Shown in pieces: positions 274 through 29,974 of a DNA stretch of 36,404 nucleotides. The stretch is from a virus (lineage: Duplodnaviria > Heunggongvirae > Uroviricota > Caudoviricetes): the IMG/VR virus record IMGVR_UViG_2850756110_000006; one strand, written 5' to 3'. The notes under the pieces are model-generated. The model did no database searches, had not been told where the DNA came from, and was given only the letters and a program-made list of their open reading frames with translations. How positions within the stretch are numbered: position 1 is the stretch's first letter; every line of letters starts with the position of its first letter. Position numbers and translations under genes: made by a program.

Positions 274-492
274 TTACATCCACATAATTTGCTGCCCTGA
301 CGGCAACGGGTGCGGCCTTACTGCGTGGACTTCTCCCGGCTTCACGATGTATCTCTGTACCGACTCATAAGTGATGAACGTGGCGCTGCAATTCACGTTC
401 TGACACTGGTGATAACGCTCTTTTGTCGTGTCAGTGATATAGCGACTTGTACGCGCATGTGCGGCATGCTGGCATAAAGGACAATGAAACAT
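274..492 (-). CDS. ogr: Late gene transcriptional activator Ogr (zinc finger, 72 aa)
   Basis: MFHCPLCQHAAHARTSRYITDTTKERYHQCQNVNCSATF... matches P2 Ogr; ATG at 492 with GGAAGAGG SD; track ORF is a 5' over-extension. Confidence 0.95.
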   Translation of the reverse strand: MFHCPLCQHAAHARTSRYITDTTKERYHQCQNVNCSATFITYESVQRYIVKPGEVHAVRPHPLPSGQQIMWM

Positions 493-6876: not shown

Positions 6877-6986
6877 CCGTTTAACTCCGTGGTTAATGGG
6901 TGCAACTATTTTCTGTTGTACAGAGCATGAGACGCTATTTGATCTGTCTGGTCAGTGGATGAAACAACAGATACAGAAAAGGCGGG
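6877..6986 (-). promoter_or_regulatory. Presumed late promoter region for the FI-FII-E-T-U-D operon (P_F), now abutting the IS2 end
   Basis: Position upstream of FI as in P2; no convincing Ogr-site consensus could be verified by eye. Confidence 0.3.
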
Positions 6987-6997
6987 TGGATTTGCCC

Positions 6998-7903
6998 CTA
7001 TATTTCCAGACATCTGTTATCACTTAACCCATTACAAGCCCGCTGCCGCAGATATTCCCGTGGCGAGCGATAACCCAGCGCACTATGCGGATGCCATTCG
7101 TTATAATGCTCGAACGCCTCTGCAAGGTTCTTTGCTGCCGTTAACCCGTCTGGTTTGGGCATGATACTGATGTAGTCACGCTTTATCGTTTTCACGAAGC
7201 TCTCTGCTATTCCGTTACTCTCCGGACTCCGCACCGCCGTGTTCTTCGGTTCAAGTCCCAACATCCGGGCGAACTGGCGTGTTTCATTAGCCCGGTAGCA
7301 TGAACCATTATCCGTCAGCCACTCCACTGGAGACGACGGAAGATCGTTGCCGAAGCGGCGTTCCACCGCTCCCAGCATGACGTCCTGTACTGTTTCACTG
7401 TTGAAGCCGCCGGTAGTCACCGCCCAGTGCAGTGCCTCACGATCACAGCAGTCCAGCGCGAACGTGACACGCAGTCTCTCTCCGTTATCACAGCAGAACT
7501 CGAACCCGTCAGAGCACCATCGCTGATTGCTTTCTTTCACGGCCACTCTGCCTGTATGTGCCCGTTTCGATGGCGGTACAGCAGGTTTTCGCTCAAGCAA
7601 CAGCGCATTCTGGCGCATGATCCGGTAAACACGTTTGGCATTGATCGCAGGCATACCATCAAGTTCTGCCTGTCTGCGAAGCAGCGCCCATACCCGACGA
7701 TAACCATACGTGGGCAGCTCTCCGATAACATGGTGTATACGGAGAAGCACATCCGTATCATCAGTGTGACGACTGCGGCGGCCATCCATCCAGTCATCGG
7801 TTCGTCTGAGAATGACGTGCAACTGCGCACGCGACACCCGGAGACAACGGCTGACTAAGCTTACTCCCCATCCCCGGGCAATAAGGGCGCGTGCGCTATC
7901 CAC
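6998..7903 (-). CDS. insD: IS2 transposase OrfB (InsD, 301 aa)
   Basis: [34 protein letters not shown]... matches IS2 InsD; integrase-like core. Confidence 0.9.
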
Positions 7904-8226
7904 TTTTTTGCCCGTCCATATTCAACGGCTTCTTTGAGGAGTTCATTTTCCATCGTTTTCTTGCCGAGCAGGCGCTGGAGTTCTTTAATCTGCTTCATGG
8001 CGGCAGCAAGTTCAGAGGCAGGAACAACCTGTTCTCCGGCGGCCACAGCAGTAAGACTTCCTTCCTGGTATTGCTTACGCCAGAGAAATAACTGGCTGGC
8101 TGCTACACCATGTTGCCGGGCAACGAGGGAGACCGTCATCCCCGGTTCAAAGCTCTGCTGAACAATTGCGATCTTTTCCTGTGTGGTACGCCGTCTGCGT
8201 TTCTCCGGCCCTAAGACATCAATCAT
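7861..8226 (-). CDS. insC: IS2 OrfA (InsC, 121 aa); an A6G slippery site at + coordinates 7904-7910 would fuse it to InsD
   Basis: [41 protein letters not shown]... matches IS2 InsC; CAAAAAAG on the minus strand just upstream of the insD ATG. Confidence 0.9.
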
Positions 8227-8399
8227 CTGTACTCCAATGACTAGTCTAAAAACTAGTATTAAGACTATCACTTATTTAAGTGATACTGGTTGTCTGGAGA
8301 TTCAGGGGGCCAGTCTAACGGGCAATTCGCCCGCCTGTCCTAGTTTGTACTCACTCATTTTCCGACTGACAATTTACATAGCCAAAACGCTATCAAATC

Positions 8400-8433
8400 T
8401 GACAGTCTGCTTTGAGCGAAAAGCAGACTGTCA
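8400..8433. repeat. Perfect palindrome (14-bp stem, 6-nt loop), motif copy A of a three-member family
   Basis: TGACAGTCTGCTTT-GAGCGA-AAAGCAGACTGTCA read directly; no adjacent T-run. Confidence 0.7.
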
Positions 8434-8548
8434 CGCGTTGAAGTTAATTGTATTACTTAGATAAACACTATCATTTTCCTGACGTTAAGTTGTATCTTTG
8501 ATAGGATTAAAAAACGTATAGATAGCTTATGCTACTGAGGGAATAAAA

Positions 8549-9358
8549 ATGACGAAAATTAGTGAACGATGGAAGCACAATGGCATTACTGAAGGTTATT
8601 GCAATATTTGTGGGAAATATGGCTTGCTCACAAAAGATCATGTTCCTCCAAAGTGCGCCATAACCTTAGGCCCTGTTTTGCAGAAAACAGTTAGCGAATT
8701 TTTTGGTATTCAGGAACCAGTTAAACCATTAAATGCTAAAAATGGCTCTTATTTCAGAACCATTTGCAGCCACTGTAACAATAAGGTATTAGGTGGGCTC
8801 GATGTTGCAATTGAAAATGTAACAAAGTCCTTTAAAGAACAGTTAAGTCGATATATGAATGGTATGAATGTATATCCATTCATTAGAATACCTTTTGATA
8901 GCATATCTTTCACTAAGGCTATGATTGGGCACGTGCTATCAGCAACTTCAGTTGAAGATTGTAAAAAAGAACCCGTAGATAGCCCCTTCTATACACCTTT
9001 AAAGGATTATGTTTTGGGTAAAAATTCAAGTTTTGAGGAAACTCATGATATTTACTACTGGTTTTACCCACACAGAATGCACATATCCGCTCAAAGTGTA
9101 GCATTTATGAACGAAGGACATGTGGCATTTATTTGTGCTTTACATTTTTTTCCTATCGGTTTTATTATCACAATGAAAAATGAAGGAACATACCCTGCCC
9201 ACTCTACAAAATTAGAACTTGAAGATAAATTCCTTACATTTAATATGACCTCTATAAATTATGAGTATACGACATTTCCATTTGTAAATCTTAAGGGAAA
9301 CCAAATGTATGCGATAAGCAACGGTCATACTTGTGTGAGTTATCCAATAATTAAGTGA
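8549..9358 (+). CDS. AT-rich accessory protein (269 aa) with N-terminal HNH/His-Me-finger-like motif (CxxC...DHVPP...CSHCNNK) and an unrecognised C-terminal domain
   Basis: Intact ORF with GAGGGA SD 7 nt before the ATG; C18-x2-C21, D30-H31, C-x2-C-N-N-K spacing resembles HNH nucleases; base composition far more AT-rich than flanking phage genes. Confidence 0.75.
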   Translation: MTKISERWKHNGITEGYCNICGKYGLLTKDHVPPKCAITLGPVLQKTVSEFFGIQEPVKPLNAKNGSYFRTICSHCNNKVLGGLDVAIENVTKSFKEQLSRYMNGMNVYPFIRIPFDSISFTKAMIGHVLSATSVEDCKKEPVDSPFYTPLKDYVLGKNSSFEETHDIYYWFYPHRMHISAQSVAFMNEGHVAFICALHFFPIGFIITMKNEGTYPAHSTKLELEDKFLTFNMTSINYEYTTFPFVNLKGNQMYAISNGHTCVSYPIIK

Positions 9359-9412
9359 CGGCTAAATCATACAATCTACGCATGTTCACTTTCTACATAT
9401 ACCATCTATAAT

Positions 9413-9437
9413 GTCCGCTGTTGGCACAAAGCAGACG
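9413..9437. repeat. Imperfect palindrome, motif copy B, between the convergent 269-aa and 425-aa genes
   Basis: GTCCGCTGTT-GGCAC-AAAGCAGACG, related to copies A and C. Confidence 0.55.
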
Positions 9438-9498
9438 CCCACTCTCACGCGAATGCTTTGCCCTTGACTTGCCAACAACCGTATCGCTTGCTCCGCAA

Positions 9499-10776
9499 CT
9501 ATGGTTTTTTATTAGAATCTTCGCCACTAAATAAATTATAATAAATTGATTTTATTAGATATCTGTCAGAATCTATATGGTCAGCACGAGTAGCATGCTC
9601 TAATGTTTCAAATGCTAGGGTTTGTGCGGCTTCAGCAAAAATTCCAGGCCAACCCTTACTCAGCATCGACAGTCCTTTAAGGACCCTTATCTGAATTTCC
9701 CTCATACTGGCACCATCGCGCGCAACAGGTGAGAAAAAGTCTTCAAGTAGATCGTTATTCTGAAGTGGTGCAACATGTACAGAAGGATATTTCACTTCTA
9801 TTTCATCAGATTTATTCTGCGCGTAAGCGGAAAGTATACGTACACCTCTGCCAATGACATCAATGGCGGTTCCAGGATCGTTCACTGCGGGGGAAAGGGC
9901 TCGGCAGGCTATTTCGGCCATGACGCTAAGACAAAATCGGGGGTCCTGAGCAAATGAACGTACATCCGAGACAATAATCGTCTCAAGTAAATCGGTGCTG
10001 ATTGATGACTCCTGGCCCTGACTCAGGTACAAAACTGGCGTGGACGGATGTATGAAACTGCCCGGCTGCGCCACGAGGTATACATGACGGGGATCATTGG
10101 TCAGCAGCTTGCTGAGTTTCACCATATCAACATATTCAACATAGCCAATCTTTTTCGGATAAACTGCAACCGTTCCTTTCGGCTGTTCATTGTTCTCAAG
10201 CCATGGATATCCGCCGAGACAGGGATTTCTTGCTCTCGCAATAAATGTTTCGATGGCCGCCTGTTCTACTTTTGCCGTTGTCTCACCAACCCTCCCCAGA
10301 GAGGTCAAATGCTGTATCCAGCGAAGCAATGTGATGAGGATTAAGGCAATGACAACCAGTGTTACAATGAATAAAATGACTCTCCCCCTTTCTCCATAAG
10401 CTCCCATATTGAGGGCAATAATCCCTACCAGACTGAAGAGAAAAGAACCGATGAAGGTGGCCAGTACATTTTGTGTGGTGACGTCTTCAACAACTAAACG
10501 AGTAGCTCTGGGAGTCACATTAGTAGTGGCTGAACCGTAGGCTGTGACCATGATGCTCAGCGAAAATGTGGTCACTGCCAGCATACTCGATGCCAGTATG
10601 TTCAGAATGTTATCGACTGCTTCCGCACCAACCTTCACGGAAACCGACTCAGGTATCATTGATTTAAAAAGAATTGATAAAAGGGCCGTTATTATTGCGA
10701 CAATTGCGAATAACGTTGCCCTGAACCATAGTTTTTTAAATGTCTGCTTCAGCATCCATTTCCAGCGTGAAATCAT
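9499..10776 (-). CDS. Membrane protein of unknown function (about 425 aa): four predicted N-terminal TM helices plus a roughly 270-aa soluble C-terminal domain; possibly DUF2254-like
   Basis: Intact ORF; start chosen at the second ATG (10776), which has a GAGGGA SD, the track start at 10791 does not; hydrophobic segments ATLFAIVAIITALLSILF, ILASSMLAVTTFSLSIMV, VLATFIGSFLFSLVGIIAL, VILFIVTLVVIALILITLL; family assignment from memory only. Confidence 0.7.
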   Translation of the reverse strand: MISRWKWMLKQTFKKLWFRATLFAIVAIITALLSILFKSMIPESVSVKVGAEAVDNILNILASSMLAVTTFSLSIMVTAYGSATTNVTPRATRLVVEDVTTQNVLATFIGSFLFSLVGIIALNMGAYGERGRVILFIVTLVVIALILITLLRWIQHLTSLGRVGETTAKVEQAAIETFIARARNPCLGGYPWLENNEQPKGTVAVYPKKIGYVEYVDMVKLSKLLTNDPRHVYLVAQPGSFIHPSTPVLYLSQGQESSISTDLLETIIVSDVRSFAQDPRFCLSVMAEIACRALSPAVNDPGTAIDVIGRGVRILSAYAQNKSDEIEVKYPSVHVAPLQNNDLLEDFFSPVARDGASMREIQIRVLKGLSMLSKGWPGIFAEAAQTLAFETLEHATRADHIDSDRYLIKSIYYNLFSGEDSNKKP

Positions 10777-10839
10777 TCTGCATTCCCTCATATTGCAGCC
10801 GGGATAAATAAATGCCGCCTCTGTGGCGGCATGTTGCTG

Positions 10840-12840
10840 TTAACGAACCAGATGCAGGAAGTGCAGGTGTTTTTCGTACTGGTCCAGTATGTCATTAATC
10901 AGCTGTTCCTGATTCCAGCCCATTACATCATAATTTTGGCCGCCCTCTTTGAGATAGACTTCAGCGCGATAATATCGATGTTGTTCACTCTGCTGCTCAT
11001 CATTATCCAGCGCAGCGAGCGCGAAGGTCGGTGAGTTATACCCGCGAAGCCTCACTTCATATATATAATTCAGCTCGTTGCCCAAATCGACTTCAAGGCG
11101 AATACGATCCTCGGCGGCGTCACTGATGTGGCTTATCGTTCCCTGCTTGTTAAGTTCCTCCTGAACCAGCGTCATGGCGGGTTGGATAATGTCGTCCATA
11201 AAACGTTTCACAAGAGAGCGCTTCGGCAAATACGCGATATTGCGTAACCTTCTCTGCCAGGGAATTGGGTTACGTGCAGCCGTAGGAGCAATAGTCGCCA
11301 TGCTAAGGCTTTCACGCTTGGTCAAATCCCGACGCAGGGCTTTTAACAGTCCGTATATGGATATTAATAAGATAACTGAGAAGGGCAATGCACTCGCTAT
11401 CGTTACGGTTTGCAACGCACTCAGCCCCCTGCGATCAGCAGGGCAATAGCAACAACGCCCATGAGCAATGCCCAGAAAATTCGCTGCCAGACGGGCGTGT
11501 TTGCCACCCCACCTGATGCCAGAGTATCCACAACCATTGCCCCGAATCAGCAGACGTTACAAAGAAGACGATGACCATCGCCATTGCAATGAATGACAGC
11601 ACGGAAGAGAACGGGAAATGCTCCAGGAAATTAAACAGGGCAAGCGCAACATCCTGCTGAACGGTATTGGCGAGGTCAGTGGCGCCCTGGTTCATGATGA
11701 GATAGATGGCGCTGTTTCCAAACACCGTCATCCACATGAGCGTAAAGCCGGCGGGAACAAACAACACGCCAGTCACGAACTCACGAATTGTCCTGCCGCG
11801 GGAAACGCGTGCAATGAACATACCTACAAACGGCGACCATGAAAGCCACCATCCCCAGTATAATAATGTCCAGCCCCCAGCCAGTTGCTCGACTTGGGTT
11901 CATACGCGTAAAGGTTGAACGTTTTACTCACCAGTTCCGACAGATAACCACCCGTATTTTCCACAAATGACTTCAGCAGAAGCACAGTGGGACCCAGGCA
12001 CAAGACCAGCGCCAGGAGCAACACCGCCAGGCCCAGATTAAGCTCAGACAGGATGCGTATTCCCTTGTCCAGGCCGGACACCACCGAAATCGTCGCTAAC
12101 CCCGTGATGACCACGATCAAAATGACCTGTACCGTTTCATTGATGGGCACGCCGAAAAGATGGTTCAAACCGGCATTCACCTGCAATACACCGTAACCCA
12201 GCGATGTTGCAACGCCAAAGACAGTGCCTATCACGGCGAAGATATCAACCGCGTGGCCTATAGGCCCGTAAATGCGATCGCCGATAATGGGATAGAGCGC
12301 AGAACGCAGCGTTAAAGGCAGACCGTGACGGTAACTGAAAAAGGCCAGAATCAGCGCCACGATGGCATAAATTGCCCATGCGTGCAGACCCCAGTGGAAG
12401 AACGTCAGGCGCATGGCTTCCTTCGCTGCCGCAACGGTCTCTGGAGTGCCGACAGGTGGCGAAAGATAATGCATCACAGGTTCGGCAACGCCAAAGAACA
12501 TCAGGCCGATCCCCATCCCTGCCGAAAAAAGCATCGCGAACCAGGAGTGGTAGCTGAAATCAGGCTGCGCATGGTCTGGGCCCAGCTTTATATCACCGTA
12601 ACGTGAGAGTCCAAGGAACGTGACGCTCAGTAAAATCAGGGCCACAGCAAGTATGTAGAACCAGCTGGCATTCGTGAAGATTTGTTGCTGAAGTAGTTTA
12701 AAATTTTTGTCGGCGACATCCGGGAATACGGCGGCAAAGGCGACAAGAAGGAAAATTAGCAAAGCAGATGTAAAGAATACCGCTTTGTTAACCTGGCTTG
12801 TAGACTTCTTTGGGGTTGTATCATTTTCACTCATAATCAT
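10840..12840 (-). pseudogene. BCCT-family (BetT-like) betaine/choline transporter gene broken by at least three frameshifts
   Basis: Fragments 11824-12840, 11435-11821 and 10840-11415 carry consecutive BCCT segments, including [32 protein letters not shown] recovered only by switching frame near 11880; further shifts near 11510 and 11425. Confidence 0.8.
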
Positions 12841-13686: not shown

Positions 13687-15777
13687 TTACACCTGTGCGA
13701 CGTTATACCATGTGCCATTAATGTATTTTTGTATTGGTCTGAATACTGCCGGATCATCGCCATCAACTTCGCCGACAATGCCAAGCCCTGTAATTACATG
13801 GCCTGATTTCTCATACATCACGCCTTTTTGCATGGTCTGAACAACACGCGTACCCAGGCGAACATCTTTCACATAGCGGGAATCAAAATTTCCGTAATCT
13901 GATGGGTTAACACGTCCAGTAACACTCAGGCCATGCCCCATTGACACTCCGCCATTGGCGTTATTGATAGTCAGCGGTCTTAAACCGTTCCATGTTCCAA
14001 ATTTATCGCCAGAGGCCGTCAGCATTAAATATGTGCTGCCGCCATCATTCCTGATAAAGAATCCATAATTGCCATAAGCAATGCGCAGACCATTAGCACT
14101 GAGCGATGTAATTTCACCTCTTGAACGAAGACCATAAGCAGAGCTGAGTGATAATTCTTCCTGAGCATCAGTATTACCTGTCGCCCAGCGAATTACCCCG
14201 CCCTGTACTGTTTCATGCCAGATAGTGTCTCCTTCTCCACCACGAAACTTTCTGAGATATTTTTTGCCGCCTCTGGTGCCGGAACATAAGGCCGTAGACA
14301 TATAGGCATTCTGGCTTCCACTATCCTGATTAATAGTTCCAGACATAGAATCGCCGTAACGGTTCCAGTCACGCCGCCAGCCAGGAGCATAGTTGTCCCC
14401 GTGGTTAATATAAGTAAATTGCGCGCTTGTAGCGCCCCCACCGCTTGATGTTGTTGGTGTGGTAATACGAATAGTCATTGCAGACTTTATGCCCATTACC
14501 TCAATAACAGCGCCAGCAAGATGAATATTGCCACAGCCAGTATCCGTAATGATTTTGTTATTTGCATATGACCAGGAGCCTTTGCACATCCAGTACGGAT
14601 GATTAAATGCACCACGGGAATCCAGCCATTCAATAAACTGAGCGGTTGTCCAGTTTCCGGCTTCAGTGCTCAAAGCGCCGCTATAAGCACGACAGGCACC
14701 GATATTTTTCGTGAAGGTATCCTTTCCCGGAATATCCGCACCGTTCTGATCTTTCTGAAGACGTTTTTCAGCATTGTCATAGGCAGACTTCACCGCCTTT
14801 GGCGTTGCAGCCTGCGTTTCAGAATCACTGTTGGTGGCGCTACTGAGCTGGACAAGACCTTTTCGCGCCGTGGTGGCATCCTGTGCAGTGTATTTCCCGT
14901 TAGCAAGGTCATATGCTGTCTTAACCGCCTTTGGCGTTGCCGCAAGCGTTTCAGAATCGCTGTTGGTGGCGCTACTGAGCTGAACAAGGCCTTTTCGCGC
15001 TGTTGTGGCATCCTGTGCAGTGTATTTCCCGTTAGCAAGGTCATATGCTGCCTTTACCGCTTTCGGCGTTGCGGCGAGCGTTTCAGACGTGCTGTTAGTC
15101 GCACTACTGAGCTGAACAAGGCCTTTTCGCGCGGTGGTAGCGTCCTGTGCGGTATATTTCCCGTTAGCAAGGTCATATGCGGCCTTAACCGCTTTCGGAG
15201 TTGCAGCCAGTGTTTCAGACGTGCTGTTGGTCGCACTGCTTAACTGAGTAAAACCTTTTGCGGTCAGCGAGGCGTCAGGGTGACGTCGTGACTGTTCATG
15301 TTCTGCAATTTTGTCATCAACGTAATCCTGCGTTGCCATCACCGTTGTGGTGTCAATGGTCAGCTCCACTGAGGCCACACTGCTGACGATGATGACCATG
15401 CGGCAGGTCTGCGAACGCCCTGAGCCTTCGGCAAGGGCTGGCTTATAACTTTCGGCCATGTTCGCCACGGCAATTAGCGTTCCCGCATCATCGTACAGGC
15501 CAAGTTCACGCATCCAGAAACCGCCCACCTCCGGCGGAATAACCAGCTCTGCGATAATATAATTACTGTTTCGTTTGTCCTGGCTGATTTTGTTCAGCGC
15601 ATGTCGCCAGACTTCATGGATAAGCCCGGTCTGTCCGGCATCCGGGACAGGCAATTTACCACCGCCATCCCCGACGGCCATCGTGGTAATGTTGACCTTC
15701 CGCCCTCCCGGTGCGGTTGCCGCTGCCAGCTTTGCTGCACCGGCAGTGGTGATAACGGTTTTGAATTTTGTGCTCAT
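13687..15777 (-). CDS. H: Tail fibre protein H (696 aa) with internal tandem repeats and a variable C-terminal receptor-binding region
   Basis: Conserved P2 H N-terminus MSTKFKTVITTAGAAKLAAA...; about four 44-aa repeats (QLSSATNSxSETLAATPKAVKAAYDLANGKYTAQDATTARKGLV). Confidence 0.9.
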   Translation of the reverse strand: MSTKFKTVITTAGAAKLAAATAPGGRKVNITTMAVGDGGGKLPVPDAGQTGLIHEVWRHALNKISQDKRNSNYIIAELVIPPEVGGFWMRELGLYDDAGTLIAVANMAESYKPALAEGSGRSQTCRMVIIVSSVASVELTIDTTTVMATQDYVDDKIAEHEQSRRHPDASLTAKGFTQLSSATNSTSETLAATPKAVKAAYDLANGKYTAQDATTARKGLVQLSSATNSTSETLAATPKAVKAAYDLANGKYTAQDATTARKGLVQLSSATNSDSETLAATPKAVKTAYDLANGKYTAQDATTARKGLVQLSSATNSDSETQAATPKAVKSAYDNAEKRLQKDQNGADIPGKDTFTKNIGACRAYSGALSTEAGNWTTAQFIEWLDSRGAFNHPYWMCKGSWSYANNKIITDTGCGNIHLAGAVIEVMGIKSAMTIRITTPTTSSGGGATSAQFTYINHGDNYAPGWRRDWNRYGDSMSGTINQDSGSQNAYMSTALCSGTRGGKKYLRKFRGGEGDTIWHETVQGGVIRWATGNTDAQEELSLSSAYGLRSRGEITSLSANGLRIAYGNYGFFIRNDGGSTYLMLTASGDKFGTWNGLRPLTINNANGGVSMGHGLSVTGRVNPSDYGNFDSRYVKDVRLGTRVVQTMQKGVMYEKSGHVITGLGIVGEVDGDDPAVFRPIQKYINGTWYNVAQV
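14773..15261. repeat. Tandem 132-bp coding repeats (about 3.7 copies) inside H; coordinates approximate
   Basis: 44-aa period in the H protein; repetitive shadow ORFs on other frames (14599-15243, 14790-15044). Confidence 0.8.
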
Positions 15778-17223: not shown

Positions 17224-17571
17224 TCAACTCACAGGGATGGTTAACGAAAGTGGCTGGCCGGTGTCGTTGTGCTGACCGGTTAACGTGACCGTCATTCGCC
17301 CGTCAAAACTGCGCGCCGTGGTGACGGATGACAGGGTGACGCGGGGTTCCCATTTCAGCACTGCCATGTAACAGGCGACCTTAATCTGCAACTCAAGCGC
17401 CGGGGTCTGCGGCTGGTCAATCATTGATGCCAGCAACGAGCCGTAATCACGACGCATCACCCGTGAGCCGACCGGTGTGCGCAGGATATCGCCGATACTC
17501 TGGCTGATATGCTCAAGGTCAGTGACCGTCAGGCCATCACTGCGATTCATTCCGAGATAACGCGCTGTCAT
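17224..17571 (-). CDS. W: Baseplate protein W (115 aa)
   Basis: Matches P2 gpW. Confidence 0.95.
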   Translation of the reverse strand: MTARYLGMNRSDGLTVTDLEHISQSIGDILRTPVGSRVMRRDYGSLLASMIDQPQTPALELQIKVACYMAVLKWEPRVTLSSVTTARSFDGRMTVTLTGQHNDTGQPLSLTIPVS

Positions 17572-18197
17572 AGAGGACTCCCGGTTGTGCCGCCGCTGTC
17601 GCCGGGGTGTTTATGGGTATGCAGTACCTTCCCGTTTGATGAAAGTTCACCGCCGGTGTGTTCAATGTTGCCGCGCATCGTCCCGCCCTTCTGCACTTCC
17701 AGCGTGCCGGTAATCAGCTTGTTGGTGCAGACCACCTCCGGTGTGTCCAGGGTGACGCGGGTTGATGCTTTCACCATGACCACCGGCACCGTGGCAGTAA
17801 CAGAATCAGAAGCCGTCACGCTGGCCGTTTTAATTCCGCTTACCGTGAGTGCACTGGTTTCAGGTTCATACTCAATCACCGCCCCGTCAGGGAAACGGAT
17901 ATGCAGGGCATCCGCCGACGCCGACGGCGCGGGGTTATCGCCGGAATAAATCCCCGGCAGAACGAACGCCGTGTCGAGTTCACCGCCCACGGCCAGAATC
18001 AGCACCTGTTCCCCCACGGAAGGTGCCCACCATGTGCGCGAACGACCGGCGCGATGGGTCAGCCACTGAAGCCAGTCGGTGCACATGCCGCCGGTCTGCA
18101 CACGGCAGCGACCGGCATTAAGGTCGGTTTCGACGATAATGCCAGTGCGAATCATATTGCGTATAAAGCGAAGAATTTCATTGTATTGTGCATTCAT
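17568..18197 (-). CDS. V: Baseplate spike protein V (about 210 aa); N-terminal ~15 residues differ from P2
   Basis: From ...RNMIRTGIIVETDLNAGRCRVQTGG onward matches P2 gpV; ATG at 18197, the track ORF starts at an upstream TTG. Confidence 0.9.
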   Translation of the reverse strand: MNAQYNEILRFIRNMIRTGIIVETDLNAGRCRVQTGGMCTDWLQWLTHRAGRSRTWWAPSVGEQVLILAVGGELDTAFVLPGIYSGDNPAPSASADALHIRFPDGAVIEYEPETSALTVSGIKTASVTASDSVTATVPVVMVKASTRVTLDTPEVVCTNKLITGTLEVQKGGTMRGNIEHTGGELSSNGKVLHTHKHPGDSGGTTGSPL

Positions 18198-18283
18198 TCG
18201 ATAATAATGATTCTGTACAATCTCGAAGTAAATCACACCACGATTTCTGGTGCACAGAACAACAAGGGACAACAAAATCCATT

Positions 18284-18949
18284 ATGAGTACTTACTTTTT
18301 CTCGTCAGAAACAATGAAAGAATTGTTCAAAGATTATCTGGTCTTTTTGAACACGCTGACTCCCGGCACAAACTTTGAATCAAGCAGAAACAAAATAATT
18401 GCTCAAGCAATAAACTTCATTTCCGAAAACCCTGAAGATTGGGACAAAAAATCCCAGTACAACATTGCTATGATTGGCGACACCTTTAAAAGTTTCTTAA
18501 GAGAAAAGGGAGAAGATAACAACAGCATCAACCTTATATTCACTTGCTTTTTTAGATTTATCATTGAACCAAGCATTCTCTCTCCGGAAATAGAGTCTCA
18601 CTTTTCACCACTAAGAACCATCAAGGATTTTGCTCTGTATAACTATAATGAATTCGATGAGCGGAGCAGAGCACAGATAGACTTTTCTCTTAGAGAACTG
18701 CCATTAGCAATGGTTAAAGAAGTTTTAAGCTCCAGCAATGTTGACACATATAAAAAATACATTGATAGTTTAAACGAAGGGCGTCAATTTTTCGAAAAGT
18801 GCGACTCCTTCTTAAAGGAGCAACATGCCAAAATAGAGTCAATCAAAGAGTCATTAAAAGGGTATGAGGTCGCATTTAATTTTGTTGGATTGTTTGAAGG
18901 CTTTAATTCACTTGGCAAAAAGAAAGTGAAATCATGCTATCAAGAATAA
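18284..18949 (+). CDS. Hypothetical protein (221 aa), first gene of an AT-rich cassette inserted between V and S
   Basis: Intact ORF with AAGGGA SD-like sequence upstream of the ATG at 18284; strongly AT-rich; no recognisable motif; the track start at 18188 lies inside V and is rejected. Confidence 0.65.
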   Translation: MSTYFFSSETMKELFKDYLVFLNTLTPGTNFESSRNKIIAQAINFISENPEDWDKKSQYNIAMIGDTFKSFLREKGEDNNSINLIFTCFFRFIIEPSILSPEIESHFSPLRTIKDFALYNYNEFDERSRAQIDFSLRELPLAMVKEVLSSSNVDTYKKYIDSLNEGRQFFEKCDSFLKEQHAKIESIKESLKGYEVAFNFVGLFEGFNSLGKKKVKSCYQE

Positions 18950-19353
18950 TTCTTATCATCTTGGCTATAATCATTCCCTCCCCGCTGATATACTATGGAA
19001 TGCATAAATTACCAGCTCTCGAAACGACAAATGCTGCCACATATTTTATGTCAGCACTACCTTTTGCATCAGTTACATTGATTTTCATGTATTACTTTAG
19101 AGTTGTACTGCTAAATCATATATCGTTACGAACTCAGATTATGCAAATAGAACTCAGAAAGAGCCTTTGTCAGTTCATTCAGAGTTATAGCGACTATTCC
19201 TCAGAGATAAGGAAAAACAATCCGGAAGCGCTTTCAAAATTCGAAGACGTAGTATTTTCAAACATCATGCTATCCGATGATAAGATACCATCTACATTTG
19301 ATGGCATTGAGCAAATAGCATCGTTAATCAATTCATTAAAAAATGGAAAGTAA
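18934..19353 (+). CDS. Small membrane protein (139 aa, two predicted N-terminal TM helices), overlapping the preceding gene by 16 nt
   Basis: ATG at 18934 overlaps the upstream stop at 18947-18949; hydrophobic MLSRIILIILAIIIPSPLIYYG and YFMSALPFASVTLIFMYYFRVVLL. Confidence 0.65.
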   Translation: MLSRIILIILAIIIPSPLIYYGMHKLPALETTNAATYFMSALPFASVTLIFMYYFRVVLLNHISLRTQIMQIELRKSLCQFIQSYSDYSSEIRKNNPEALSKFEDVVFSNIMLSDDKIPSTFDGIEQIASLINSLKNGK

Positions 19354-19356
19354 TGA

Positions 19357-19384
19357 TAAAAGGCCAATAACTGGCCTTTTATTT
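19357..19384. terminator. Bidirectional rho-independent terminator between the cassette and S
   Basis: AAAAGGCCA-ATAAC-TGGCCTTTT flanked by an A-run on one side and a T-run on the other. Confidence 0.7.
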
Positions 19385-19455
19385 ATTAACATGAAAATTC
19401 AAAATAAATTATGCTAATCAATTGATTTCTATCTTATATTCTCAGATGATTAAAG

Positions 19456-19908
19456 CTAACGATTCAGGTGAGCCAGGATAATCTCTTCAATCATCTGCAC
19501 ATCCTCACCGGTAAAGCCGAGCAGAGGACGCGCCGGATATTCAATTTTCTTACCGTCTTTCCGGGTTTCTTCCGACAGACCGAACTGATGCACACTGGCT
19601 ATTTTCGGTGACTTCCCGCCGTAAAACTCCATTGATGCCTGTTCAGGGCTGGCGCGGATATGCAAAAAACGACTGGTGATAAGTTTCGCAAACATTTTTC
19701 GCTTAACGCGACCGGTCTTTTTTCTGGCGCTCTGCTGCTGGCGTGGTGCGTAGGGTGTGCCGTCCGGGGCTTTCTGTGCCATCACCCGACGCTGCTGACT
19801 CTGACGCAGACGTTTCGCCAGTTCGGCGCTCAGTCGCCGACGCCCTGACGGTGACAGCGACTCAATCAGTCCGGTCAGCCTGTCTTCAAAACGCTTAAAC
19901 TCATTCAT
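19456..19908 (-). CDS. S: Tail completion protein S (150 aa)
   Basis: Matches P2 gpS. Confidence 0.95.
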   Translation of the reverse strand: MNEFKRFEDRLTGLIESLSPSGRRRLSAELAKRLRQSQQRRVMAQKAPDGTPYAPRQQQSARKKTGRVKRKMFAKLITSRFLHIRASPEQASMEFYGGKSPKIASVHQFGLSEETRKDGKKIEYPARPLLGFTGEDVQMIEEIILAHLNR

Positions 19909-25662: not shown

Positions 25663-25835
25663 TGTCAGGAGTCCTGAATAGTGATTAGAGGAGTCACATG
25701 TCGGCATCAGTTTCCCGACGATGCGCATCCTCCGCCATCAGTCCCGGATGGCTTATCACTGACACAACAGCACCTTAGCGAATCGCGGGGCGCGACTCAG
25801 TAGCCTTGCCGTGTATTCATCACGGCGAGGTATTC
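25663..25835. promoter_or_regulatory. Divergent late promoter region between O and P
   Basis: Intergenic position between divergently transcribed late operons as in P2; no site consensus verified. Confidence 0.4.
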
Positions 25836-29045: not shown

Positions 29046-29974
29046 TCAAACCAGGCTTTTGCCTTGCTTCATTTTTTTAGATGAGTCTAAAAATTTGAAA
29101 TTATCATTAGATGAAAATATTCTTTCTGCGGTATGCCGAATGACTGAAGTATTGAAGACCGCAGCCTGCTCCTCATTACAACTGAATACACCCTCATGAC
29201 CATCAAACTCGCCCGCCAAAAGAAGGTTTTTTGATACTGGGAACAAAACTAAAGTGTCTTTTACACCAAACCCGGGGAATAAGGGCCTCGTGCTAATTCA
29301 GGATTAGTCCACATTAAGCAAACTGGGTTATCTGAAGTTATAAATGACCCTTGCCCATCAGATATGGTCATAAGTGACCAGTTGCGTTGATGCAACAACT
29401 TGGTGATAACAGGTACACATTTCATTTCCATATCTATCATGAACTCTCTGATTACATTGATTTCGAAATTATCCCCATCCACAAAATTTTTAATTTTTTC
29501 GTAAGCGAGATCATATGGCAAAGACTCACCCATTTCTTTCTCATAAGCTAATTTGCAATCGTCCCAACGCTCAGCCGAACTAACTGAGGATTTCATGATA
29601 AACTTTGCTATTTGTTTCAATGGAGATGATAAATGTTCTCGCTGAGCAGGCGTACGTATTGCCAATAAGGAAATAAACTCCAGAATAACATCTTTGGTTT
29701 CGCCTGAAAACTCGCCCCCTCCTCAAGTTTTCTTAAATGAGTAGCGACACTGCCTTCAAACTCTGCAAGAGAACTCTCGAGATAGTTTGGGTCAACTCCA
29801 TCCAATTCTAATCGGTTGAAATCTCTAACCCCCCCCGACATTGCGAGTATTACTCTCAAAGGTTTTGCGCTCCTTTAAATCTATTACAGTTAATTTTGAT
29901 TTTTTCCCCCCATTACTTGTAAACCCTTTCAAATAACATTGGGATAAAAAATGATGATGCCTTGCAACACTCAT
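29046..29974 (-). pseudogene. AT-rich DUF4238-like gene at the tin/old position, split into four frame-shifted fragments
   Basis: N-terminus MSVARHHHFLSQCYLKGFTS resembles the DUF4238 HxxPQFYLKxF motif (from memory); frame breaks at a G8/C8 run (29829-29836), near 29617-29665 and near 29246-29261. Confidence 0.65.

Follow-up and report, generated by a model that had tools for sequence, protein, structure and literature searches.

Organization of the prophage and the S–V junction

The window, i.e., the whole 36,404-nucleotide stretch of viral DNA analyzed here, is a complete P2-like prophage. Its late genes lie on the minus strand and are arranged in the order ogr (492..274), D, U, T, E, FII, FI, a cargo block on the Z/fun side, G, H, I, J and W, after which come V, the S/V cargo, S, R, the lysis genes, the capsid genes through Q, the early region and int (Table 1). 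W is 98.5% identical to its counterpart in P2 (AF063097) and S is 95.8% identical up to its stop codon, beyond which identity drops to ~55%. The remaining late genes are intact and ~97% identical to those of P2, and the late-gene activator Ogr matches its P2 counterpart at 72/72 residues. The start of V at 18197 agrees with the PGAP call in related genomes. In the tail-fibre gene H (13687-15777, minus strand), the region at about 14700-15250 holds ~3-4 tandem copies of a ~45-residue unit reading ...KGLVQLSSATNS(T/D)SETLAATPKAVKAAYDLANGKYTAQDATTAR..., and these repeats account for the long antisense ORFs found within H.

Table 1. Coordinates and basis of the features of the window considered in this work.
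Feature	Position	Strand	Basis or remark
ogr, late-gene activator	274..492	-	Product identical to P2 Ogr
PF activator site, non-P2 variant	6943..6970	-	Upstream of FI; internal positive control
V (baseplate spike)	17568..18197	-	209 aa, ATG at 18197; ORF and translation
RNMIRTG-coding stretch, where P2 homology restarts	18141..18161	-	Alignments
Foreign V 5′ end, codons 1-12, MNAQYNEILRFI	18162..18197	-	AT-rich; two codons shorter than in P2
-10-like hexamer CATTAT	18204..18209	-	Position of the family CATCCT; ends 6 nt before the V ATG
-35-like hexamer TTTACT	18227..18232	-	Position of the family ATTGCCG element
Predicted Ogr (activator) site of the variant PV, TTGTTGTTCTGTGCACCAGAAATCGTGG	18238..18265	-	PWM score 16.4, rank 2/72,754
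Cargo gene, phrog_9373 (function unknown)	18284..19353	+	C-terminal membrane segments; antisense to the late genes
Bidirectional rho-independent terminator	19356..19382	.	Between the S stop and the cargo stop; terminator scan and RNA fold
S, last gene of the O operon	19456..19908	-	ORF; identity to P2
PO/PP activator site	25743..25770	-	Identical to the annotated P2 site; internal positive control

The 5′ end of V

When aligned with P2, V resolves into two unequal parts: codons 13-209 (18161..17568) are 96.8% identical (575/594), as compared to 50% (18/36, with gaps) for codons 1-12 (18197..18162) and 54% for the 86-bp spacer between V and the cargo gene (18283..18198). The G+C content is 34.4% across 18162-18283 and 34.3% across the larger interval 18162-19455, whereas the remainder of V has 60.1% and the window as a whole 51.2%. 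Homology to P2 restarts at CGCAA(T/C)ATGATTCGC, which codes for R13-N-M-I-R, such that 12 codons for MNAQYNEILRFI stand where P2 has 14 codons for MNTLANIQELARAL. Judged from these alignments, 18 mismatches in 36 nt directly adjoining 594 nt at 96.8% identity cannot be a product of chance, and recombination on the V side probably took place within the RNMIRTG-coding stretch. The opposite, left edge of the replaced segment is marked in the same comparison by the end of P2-type sequence near the S stop codon.

The new N-terminus is homologous to the N-termini of other gpV proteins in that it retains the E, I/L, R and I/L positions preceding RNMIRTG. The RN(M/L)IR motif recurs in nearly all of ~80 gpV relatives, and the PHROG baseplate families phrog_6142 and phrog_9992 align to V from residue 1. 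A Buttiauxella prophage encodes a gpV with a similar N-terminus, 19 residues long, but next to unrelated cargo. The identity of 96.8% from codon 13, the PHROG alignments from residue 1 and the family pattern together point to homology with gpV along the full length of the protein, including its N-terminal segment. By these comparisons, V is a chimera of P2-type codons 13-209 and foreign codons 1-12. A preliminary description of this DNA had held that V is P2-like from RNMIRTG onward and that its start and the sequence upstream of it are AT-rich and unlike P2; both points are borne out by the precise restart of homology at the RNMIRTG codons and by the steps in identity (50-54% against 96.8%) and G+C content (34% against 60%). 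It had further put the foreign part of V at ~15 codons; the foreign stretch is real but spans 12 codons, which replace 14 in P2.

A predicted family-type activator site upstream of V

To place the region upstream of V in the context of its relatives, 80 loci of gpV relatives were taken from bacterial assemblies, one genome per species, and S and V were located in each of them. A position weight matrix (PWM) of 28 columns was then derived from 75 non-redundant V-upstream regions of other P2-like prophages, with the cassette type of the window excluded, and was run over both strands of the window (all 72,754 positions). The highest scores belong, in this order, to the PO/PP site (17.9), a site upstream of V (16.4) and the PF site (14.6). 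The TGT of the V-upstream site (18259-18261) lies at -64 relative to the V ATG; a TGT is found at -64/-65 in 72/75 of the non-redundant relatives, whether cargo is present or absent. In the family, this TGT sits inside a conserved (G)TTGTG(T)CA...CA(C/A)AAAC element, and the annotated PV activator site of P2 has the identical register.

Scores of at least 16.4 arise at ~1e-6 per position in block-shuffled sequence. Both halves of the V site contribute, with 8.4 bits from the left and 8.0 bits from the right, the latter score being reached by 0.06% of background positions. Across ~1 Mb of real flanking sequence, high scores outside PV cluster at fixed positions within one phage subgroup, where they plausibly mark the other late promoters. 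Once P2 is removed from the training set, the top two matches in the P2 genome are the GenBank-annotated PO/PP and PF activator sites. Under the same regime, the experimentally defined PV site of P2 scores only 7.7 (rank 25), and the matrix is therefore imperfect and misses some functional sites. The V site of the window conforms to the family consensus more closely than the PV site of P2 does (16.4 versus 7.7-11.5), and it is conserved in divergent copies of the cassette.

The literal activator consensus TGT-N12-ACA, as quoted in PMC3931495, has 4 matches across the window versus 9.5 expected, and none of them falls at any late promoter, including the region upstream of V. However, the PO (identical to that of P2) and PF sites of the window read TGT-N12-CCA and the PV of P2 reads TGT-N11-ACA; we accordingly rejected the literal pattern as a promoter test, since these window sites and the annotated sites of P2 likewise fail it, and a pattern missing from known sites offers no discriminating criterion. 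Two further candidates at V were also set aside. One is TGTTGTC at -77, which matches the left half of P2 PV at 7/7 positions but is in the wrong register and scores -20.7; it is overlapped by the true match, TTGTTGTTCT..., with its TGT at -64. The other is TGT-N11-CCA anchored at -67, which was superseded by the family alignment. The fourth-best PWM match in the window (13.4-13.5; GTTTTGTTCCCAGTATCAAAAAACC) lies on the minus strand at 29222-29249, next to short ORFs between cos/Q and gene A, where the accessory region is fragmented; it may be a chance occurrence or a relic.

Putative core promoter elements, predicted transcription start and terminator

The -35- and -10-like hexamers downstream of the activator site are 17 nt apart, and their positions are conserved in the family, with T at -35 in 71/76 relatives and T at -7 in 70/76. 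A sigma-70 consensus scan with a threshold of 9 matches did not list TTTACT-17-CATTAT, which has 8/12. The sole match that it returned, CTGACG-16-CATAAT (18308..18281), was rejected as the V promoter, being inside the start of the cargo gene and outside the family register. MAFFT pairs ATTGTaCA of the window with ATTGTgCA of P2 at differing distances from the ATG (-24 vs -19); both motifs more probably represent, in reverse complement, a -10 box (TACAAT or CACAAT) of the divergent cargo promoter.

Neither V ATG (18197 or M15, at 18155) is preceded by a Shine-Dalgarno sequence. The GenBank record of P2 annotates activator sites for PO/PP, PV and PF along with transcription starts, the PV start being the first base of the V ATG, and the annotated PO, PV and PF starts each follow the TGT of the TTGT element by 64-66 nt. 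Late promoters of the P2 type are characterized by a TTGT...(A/C)A activator element centred near -55 and by dependence on Ogr and on the alpha subunit of RNA polymerase. The register of the TGT in the window fits the P2 spacing if the start is conserved. The start predicted from this register lies on the A of the ATG or beside it, which agrees with the lack of a Shine-Dalgarno sequence. On the far side of the cargo gene, the terminator folds into an 11-bp GC-cored stem with A and U runs on its flanks. Such a strong, apparently bidirectional terminator after S would account for a separate promoter of V, and the cargo gene is also antisense to the late genes. The sequence upstream of V appears to offer the features of a P2-type late promoter, namely an activator element and weak core hexamers in register, in a genome that encodes the cognate zinc-finger activator Ogr.

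The cargo gene and its linkage to the V variant

The intact cargo protein has 347-357 residues with hydrophobic C-terminal segments, and searches of it with PADLOC and Pfam gave no significant assignment. In the window, a deletion has removed 4 bp from an AAAG repeat near 18918 (18905-18925) and leaves the gene as two overlapping ORFs; the sequence reads GGCAAAAAGAAAGTG here as against GGCAAAAAGAAAGAAAGTG in an aligned intact copy (CFSAN051542). The other E. coli matches listed also have the 4 extra bases and are annotated as a single hypothetical protein. The break means either that the gene is a pseudogene or that the sequence contains an error.

The 5′ variant of V along with the spacer is present in 60 of 5426 complete E. 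coli genomes, and the identical 60 carry the cargo gene. Likewise, an exact 32-mer from the V 5′ end retrieves 18 IMG/VR contigs, identical to the 18 found with the cargo protein. A search for a donor lineage of the V 5′ variant among E. coli genomes and IMG/VR recovered it only together with this cargo and yielded no donor. None of the isolated plaque-forming phages in the phage collection has the cassette, and we infer its function in a viable phage solely from its persistence in intact-looking prophages. The copies of the cassette fall into several sequence variants. In the most divergent of these, identity to the window is 81% in the cargo gene, 92% in the spacer and 94% in V codons 1-12; this copy retains the activator site, TTTACT and a CAT..AT hexamer, which suggests that the promoter region is under constraint.

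The S/V locus in P2 and related prophages

The gap between S and V is bimodal across the 80 loci, measuring either 53-76 bp (empty) or 800-2700 bp (cargo). The orf30 (S/V) position has been named as a variable region (PMC3091744), and the bimodality confirms the S/V junction as a widely used variable locus. The cassette of the window belongs to this type by its position, its low G+C content (34% vs 51%) and an accessory gene that is not needed for morphogenesis; the latter is indicated by the frameshift of the cargo gene in a prophage whose late genes are intact.

In P2 itself, orf30 lies antisense between S and V and is followed by PV (AF063097: activator site 10239-10266, start 10308). P2 and the window have a common layout: S and a terminator are followed by an AT-rich, non-essential gene in antisense orientation, and a short divergent spacer that contains an activator site then leads to V. 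They also share a V without a Shine-Dalgarno sequence, a TGT 64-65 nt before its ATG and an identical Ogr. They differ in that the cargo of the window is unrelated (phrog_9373, not orf30), the spacer is 54% identical, and the swap runs 12 codons into V, whereas the V N-terminus of P2 is the same as that of cargo-free relatives. The architecture as such, an orf30-type cassette with PV, is that known from P2; the window differs in its cargo, its variant promoter and a joint 12 codons inside V.

Cargo-free S–V junctions with a 66-69 bp spacer are found in L-413C, fiAA91-ss and many P2-like prophages of Enterobacterales. Like the window, they display the TGT at -64/-65 and -35/-10-like elements in register, and their activator element begins right after the S stop. 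Unlike the window, they have no cargo, a P2-type V N-terminus and a GC-rich hairpin where the spacer of the window is AT-rich. In such loci (L002, L008, L028, L036, L047, L049 and others), the entire ~66-bp S–V spacer is the PV promoter, and the hairpin, GCCGCCGG-N5/6-CCGGCGGC, separates the -35-like element from the -10-like one; it may also serve the O operon as an attenuator or terminator that is embedded in the next promoter. Across the ~80 loci (L008-L087), the distance from the TGT to the V ATG is near-invariant (72/75) and no Shine-Dalgarno sequence precedes V. Together with the PV start of P2, the near-invariant register and absent Shine-Dalgarno sequence suggest leaderless translation of V across the whole group.

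The PV sequences of P2 (with orf30) and of the prophage L009 (Escherichia sp. MOD1-EC7003) differ from the empty-site type. In L009, an empty-site activator remnant, TAGTTGTGCCATTCCCGACACC, persists directly after the S stop, ~1308 nt upstream of V, and a second, different PV adjoins V; it seems that the old activator site stayed in place and that a cargo equipped with its own promoter went in downstream of it. Cargo units at the S/V locus hence tend to bring their own PV. A distant P2-like prophage of Pectobacterium zantedeschiae (L038, 1837-2862) encodes a 36%-identical homologue of the cargo protein of the window, antisense just upstream of V, i.e., in the same position and orientation, and the left half of its PV is the same TTGTTGTTCT. 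This cargo family has been associated with the S/V locus for long.

Origin of the cassette and alternative explanations

The explanation that we favor, at a probability of roughly 80%, is that 18162-19455 constitutes one AT-rich cassette, acquired by recombination, whose own variant Ogr-dependent PV drives the V operon. In the direction of late transcription it would comprise the terminator, the antisense cargo gene, the variant PV and the first 12 codons of V. Another P2-like phage is its most likely source, with one recombination joint falling at the end of S and the other among the conserved codons for RNMIRTG in V; this route is suggested by the sharp steps in identity together with an N-terminus that is homologous but divergent. 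The O-operon transcript would end at the terminator after S, and Ogr would bind 18238-18265, recruit RNA polymerase and activate the variant PV. Going by the register and the P2 annotation, the V-W-J-I-H-G transcript would have its 5′ end on the A of the V ATG (18197) or no more than a couple of bases from it, and would be leaderless or nearly so, as the GenBank record annotates for P2.

This picture revises the preliminary description in two respects. It had rightly seen that the start of V and the P2-type sequence ahead of it have given way to DNA that belongs to the AT-rich S–V cargo, a view which the linkage of the parts (60/60 and 18/18) upholds. However, the event is more aptly seen as the exchange of a homologous cassette (terminator, cargo, variant PV and 12 V codons) than as an insertion by which the start of V was destroyed. 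The presumed loss of the V-W-J-I-H-G late promoter is not sustained either: a search for an Ogr-type promoter immediately upstream of 18197 found the family-typical activator site at 18265..18238, with its register kept and -35/-10-like hexamers following it.

Were PV nevertheless lost with the replacement, V-W-J-I-H-G would be transcribed only by read-through from PO or from fortuitous promoters in the cargo. The P2 PV sequence is indeed gone, with the spacer at 54% identity, the strict TGT-N12-ACA pattern is absent, and the weak sigma-70-like CTGACG-16-CATAAT at 18308..18281 could be such a fortuitous promoter. Yet read-through would be faced with the strong bidirectional terminator after S and the antisense cargo gene, and loss of PV sits poorly with a family-typical activator site that is in the family register, ranks second in the window and is kept in copies whose cargo gene has diverged to 81%; we regard this scenario as very unlikely. 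Marginally less unlikely is that the chimeric V or its expression is non-functional, which would make the prophage a tail-defective remnant and the promoter-like elements relics. The frameshifted cargo gene does attest some decay in the window, and the cassette occurs in no isolated phage of the phage collection. Against a remnant, every copy examined, comprising three E. coli sequence variants and the 81% IMG/VR variant, has an intact V with an unchanged start; across these, the 12 codons differ by just one conservative and one synonymous change. Moreover, the V N-terminus keeps the positions conserved in the family and the other late genes are intact at ~97% identity to P2.

The third alternative concerns the start of V: if the true start were the internal ATG M15 (18155), the apparent N-terminus would be an untranslated leader and only promoter and leader would have been swapped. 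The restart of P2 homology two codons before M15 and the lack of a Shine-Dalgarno sequence ahead of either ATG would suit such a boundary. However, all ~80 relatives keep 13-16 open in-frame codons before RNMIR with a shared pattern, M-N/K-x4-(I/L)-x-(E/D)-(I/L)-x-R-x-(I/L)-R-N, despite divergent DNA. The PHROG baseplate profiles align from residue 1, and the annotated transcription start of P2 at the first base of the upstream ATG fits leaderless translation from there. An M15 start is the least probable of the three alternatives, and we give it very little weight.

Extending the favored explanation to the locus as a whole, we tentatively propose, at somewhat less than even odds, that S/V cassettes are self-sufficient exchange units, each with its own copy of the Ogr-responsive PV and sometimes with the first codons of V, that pass between P2-like phages by recombining at the end of S and at RNMIRTG, and that V, given the fixed -64/-65 register in Enterobacterales P2-like prophages and the missing Shine-Dalgarno sequence, is generally translated from a leaderless late mRNA.

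Implications and other hotspots

An exchange of this kind removes the puzzle of how the prophage expresses its baseplate and tail-fibre operon after the apparent loss of PV; on this reading, modules have been exchanged in a commonplace way at a site already known to vary, with no loss of the promoter. It also suggests an annotation rule for P2-like prophages, whereby the late promoter of V is sought as an activator element with its TGT 64-65 nt before the V ATG, even where the sequence is unlike that of P2. Further, swaps of accessory genes at S/V can carry along the promoter and a few codons of V. This has a modest relevance for the engineering of P2/P4 and for the mining of P2 hotspots for defence genes, because the boundaries of a cassette may include essential regulatory sequence.

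The Z/fun and TO regions of P2-like phages have been described as hotspots of horizontal transfer and defence (PMC3091744, PMC9122126, PMC13586616), and they share with S/V the swapping of AT-rich accessory genes between otherwise near-identical phages; the promoter of the S/V locus and chimeric V N-termini are not discussed in these papers. In the window, the PF region (6877-7000, minus strand, upstream of FI) is non-P2 from just upstream of the transcription start and adjoins the large cargo block on the Z/fun side (about 6998-12840). It keeps an activator-type site (6970..6943; TGT-N12-CCA), with TTGT at -66 from the P2-equivalent start. From its sequence, PF is a second instance in this prophage of a hotspot swap in which a late promoter gave way to a working-looking variant.
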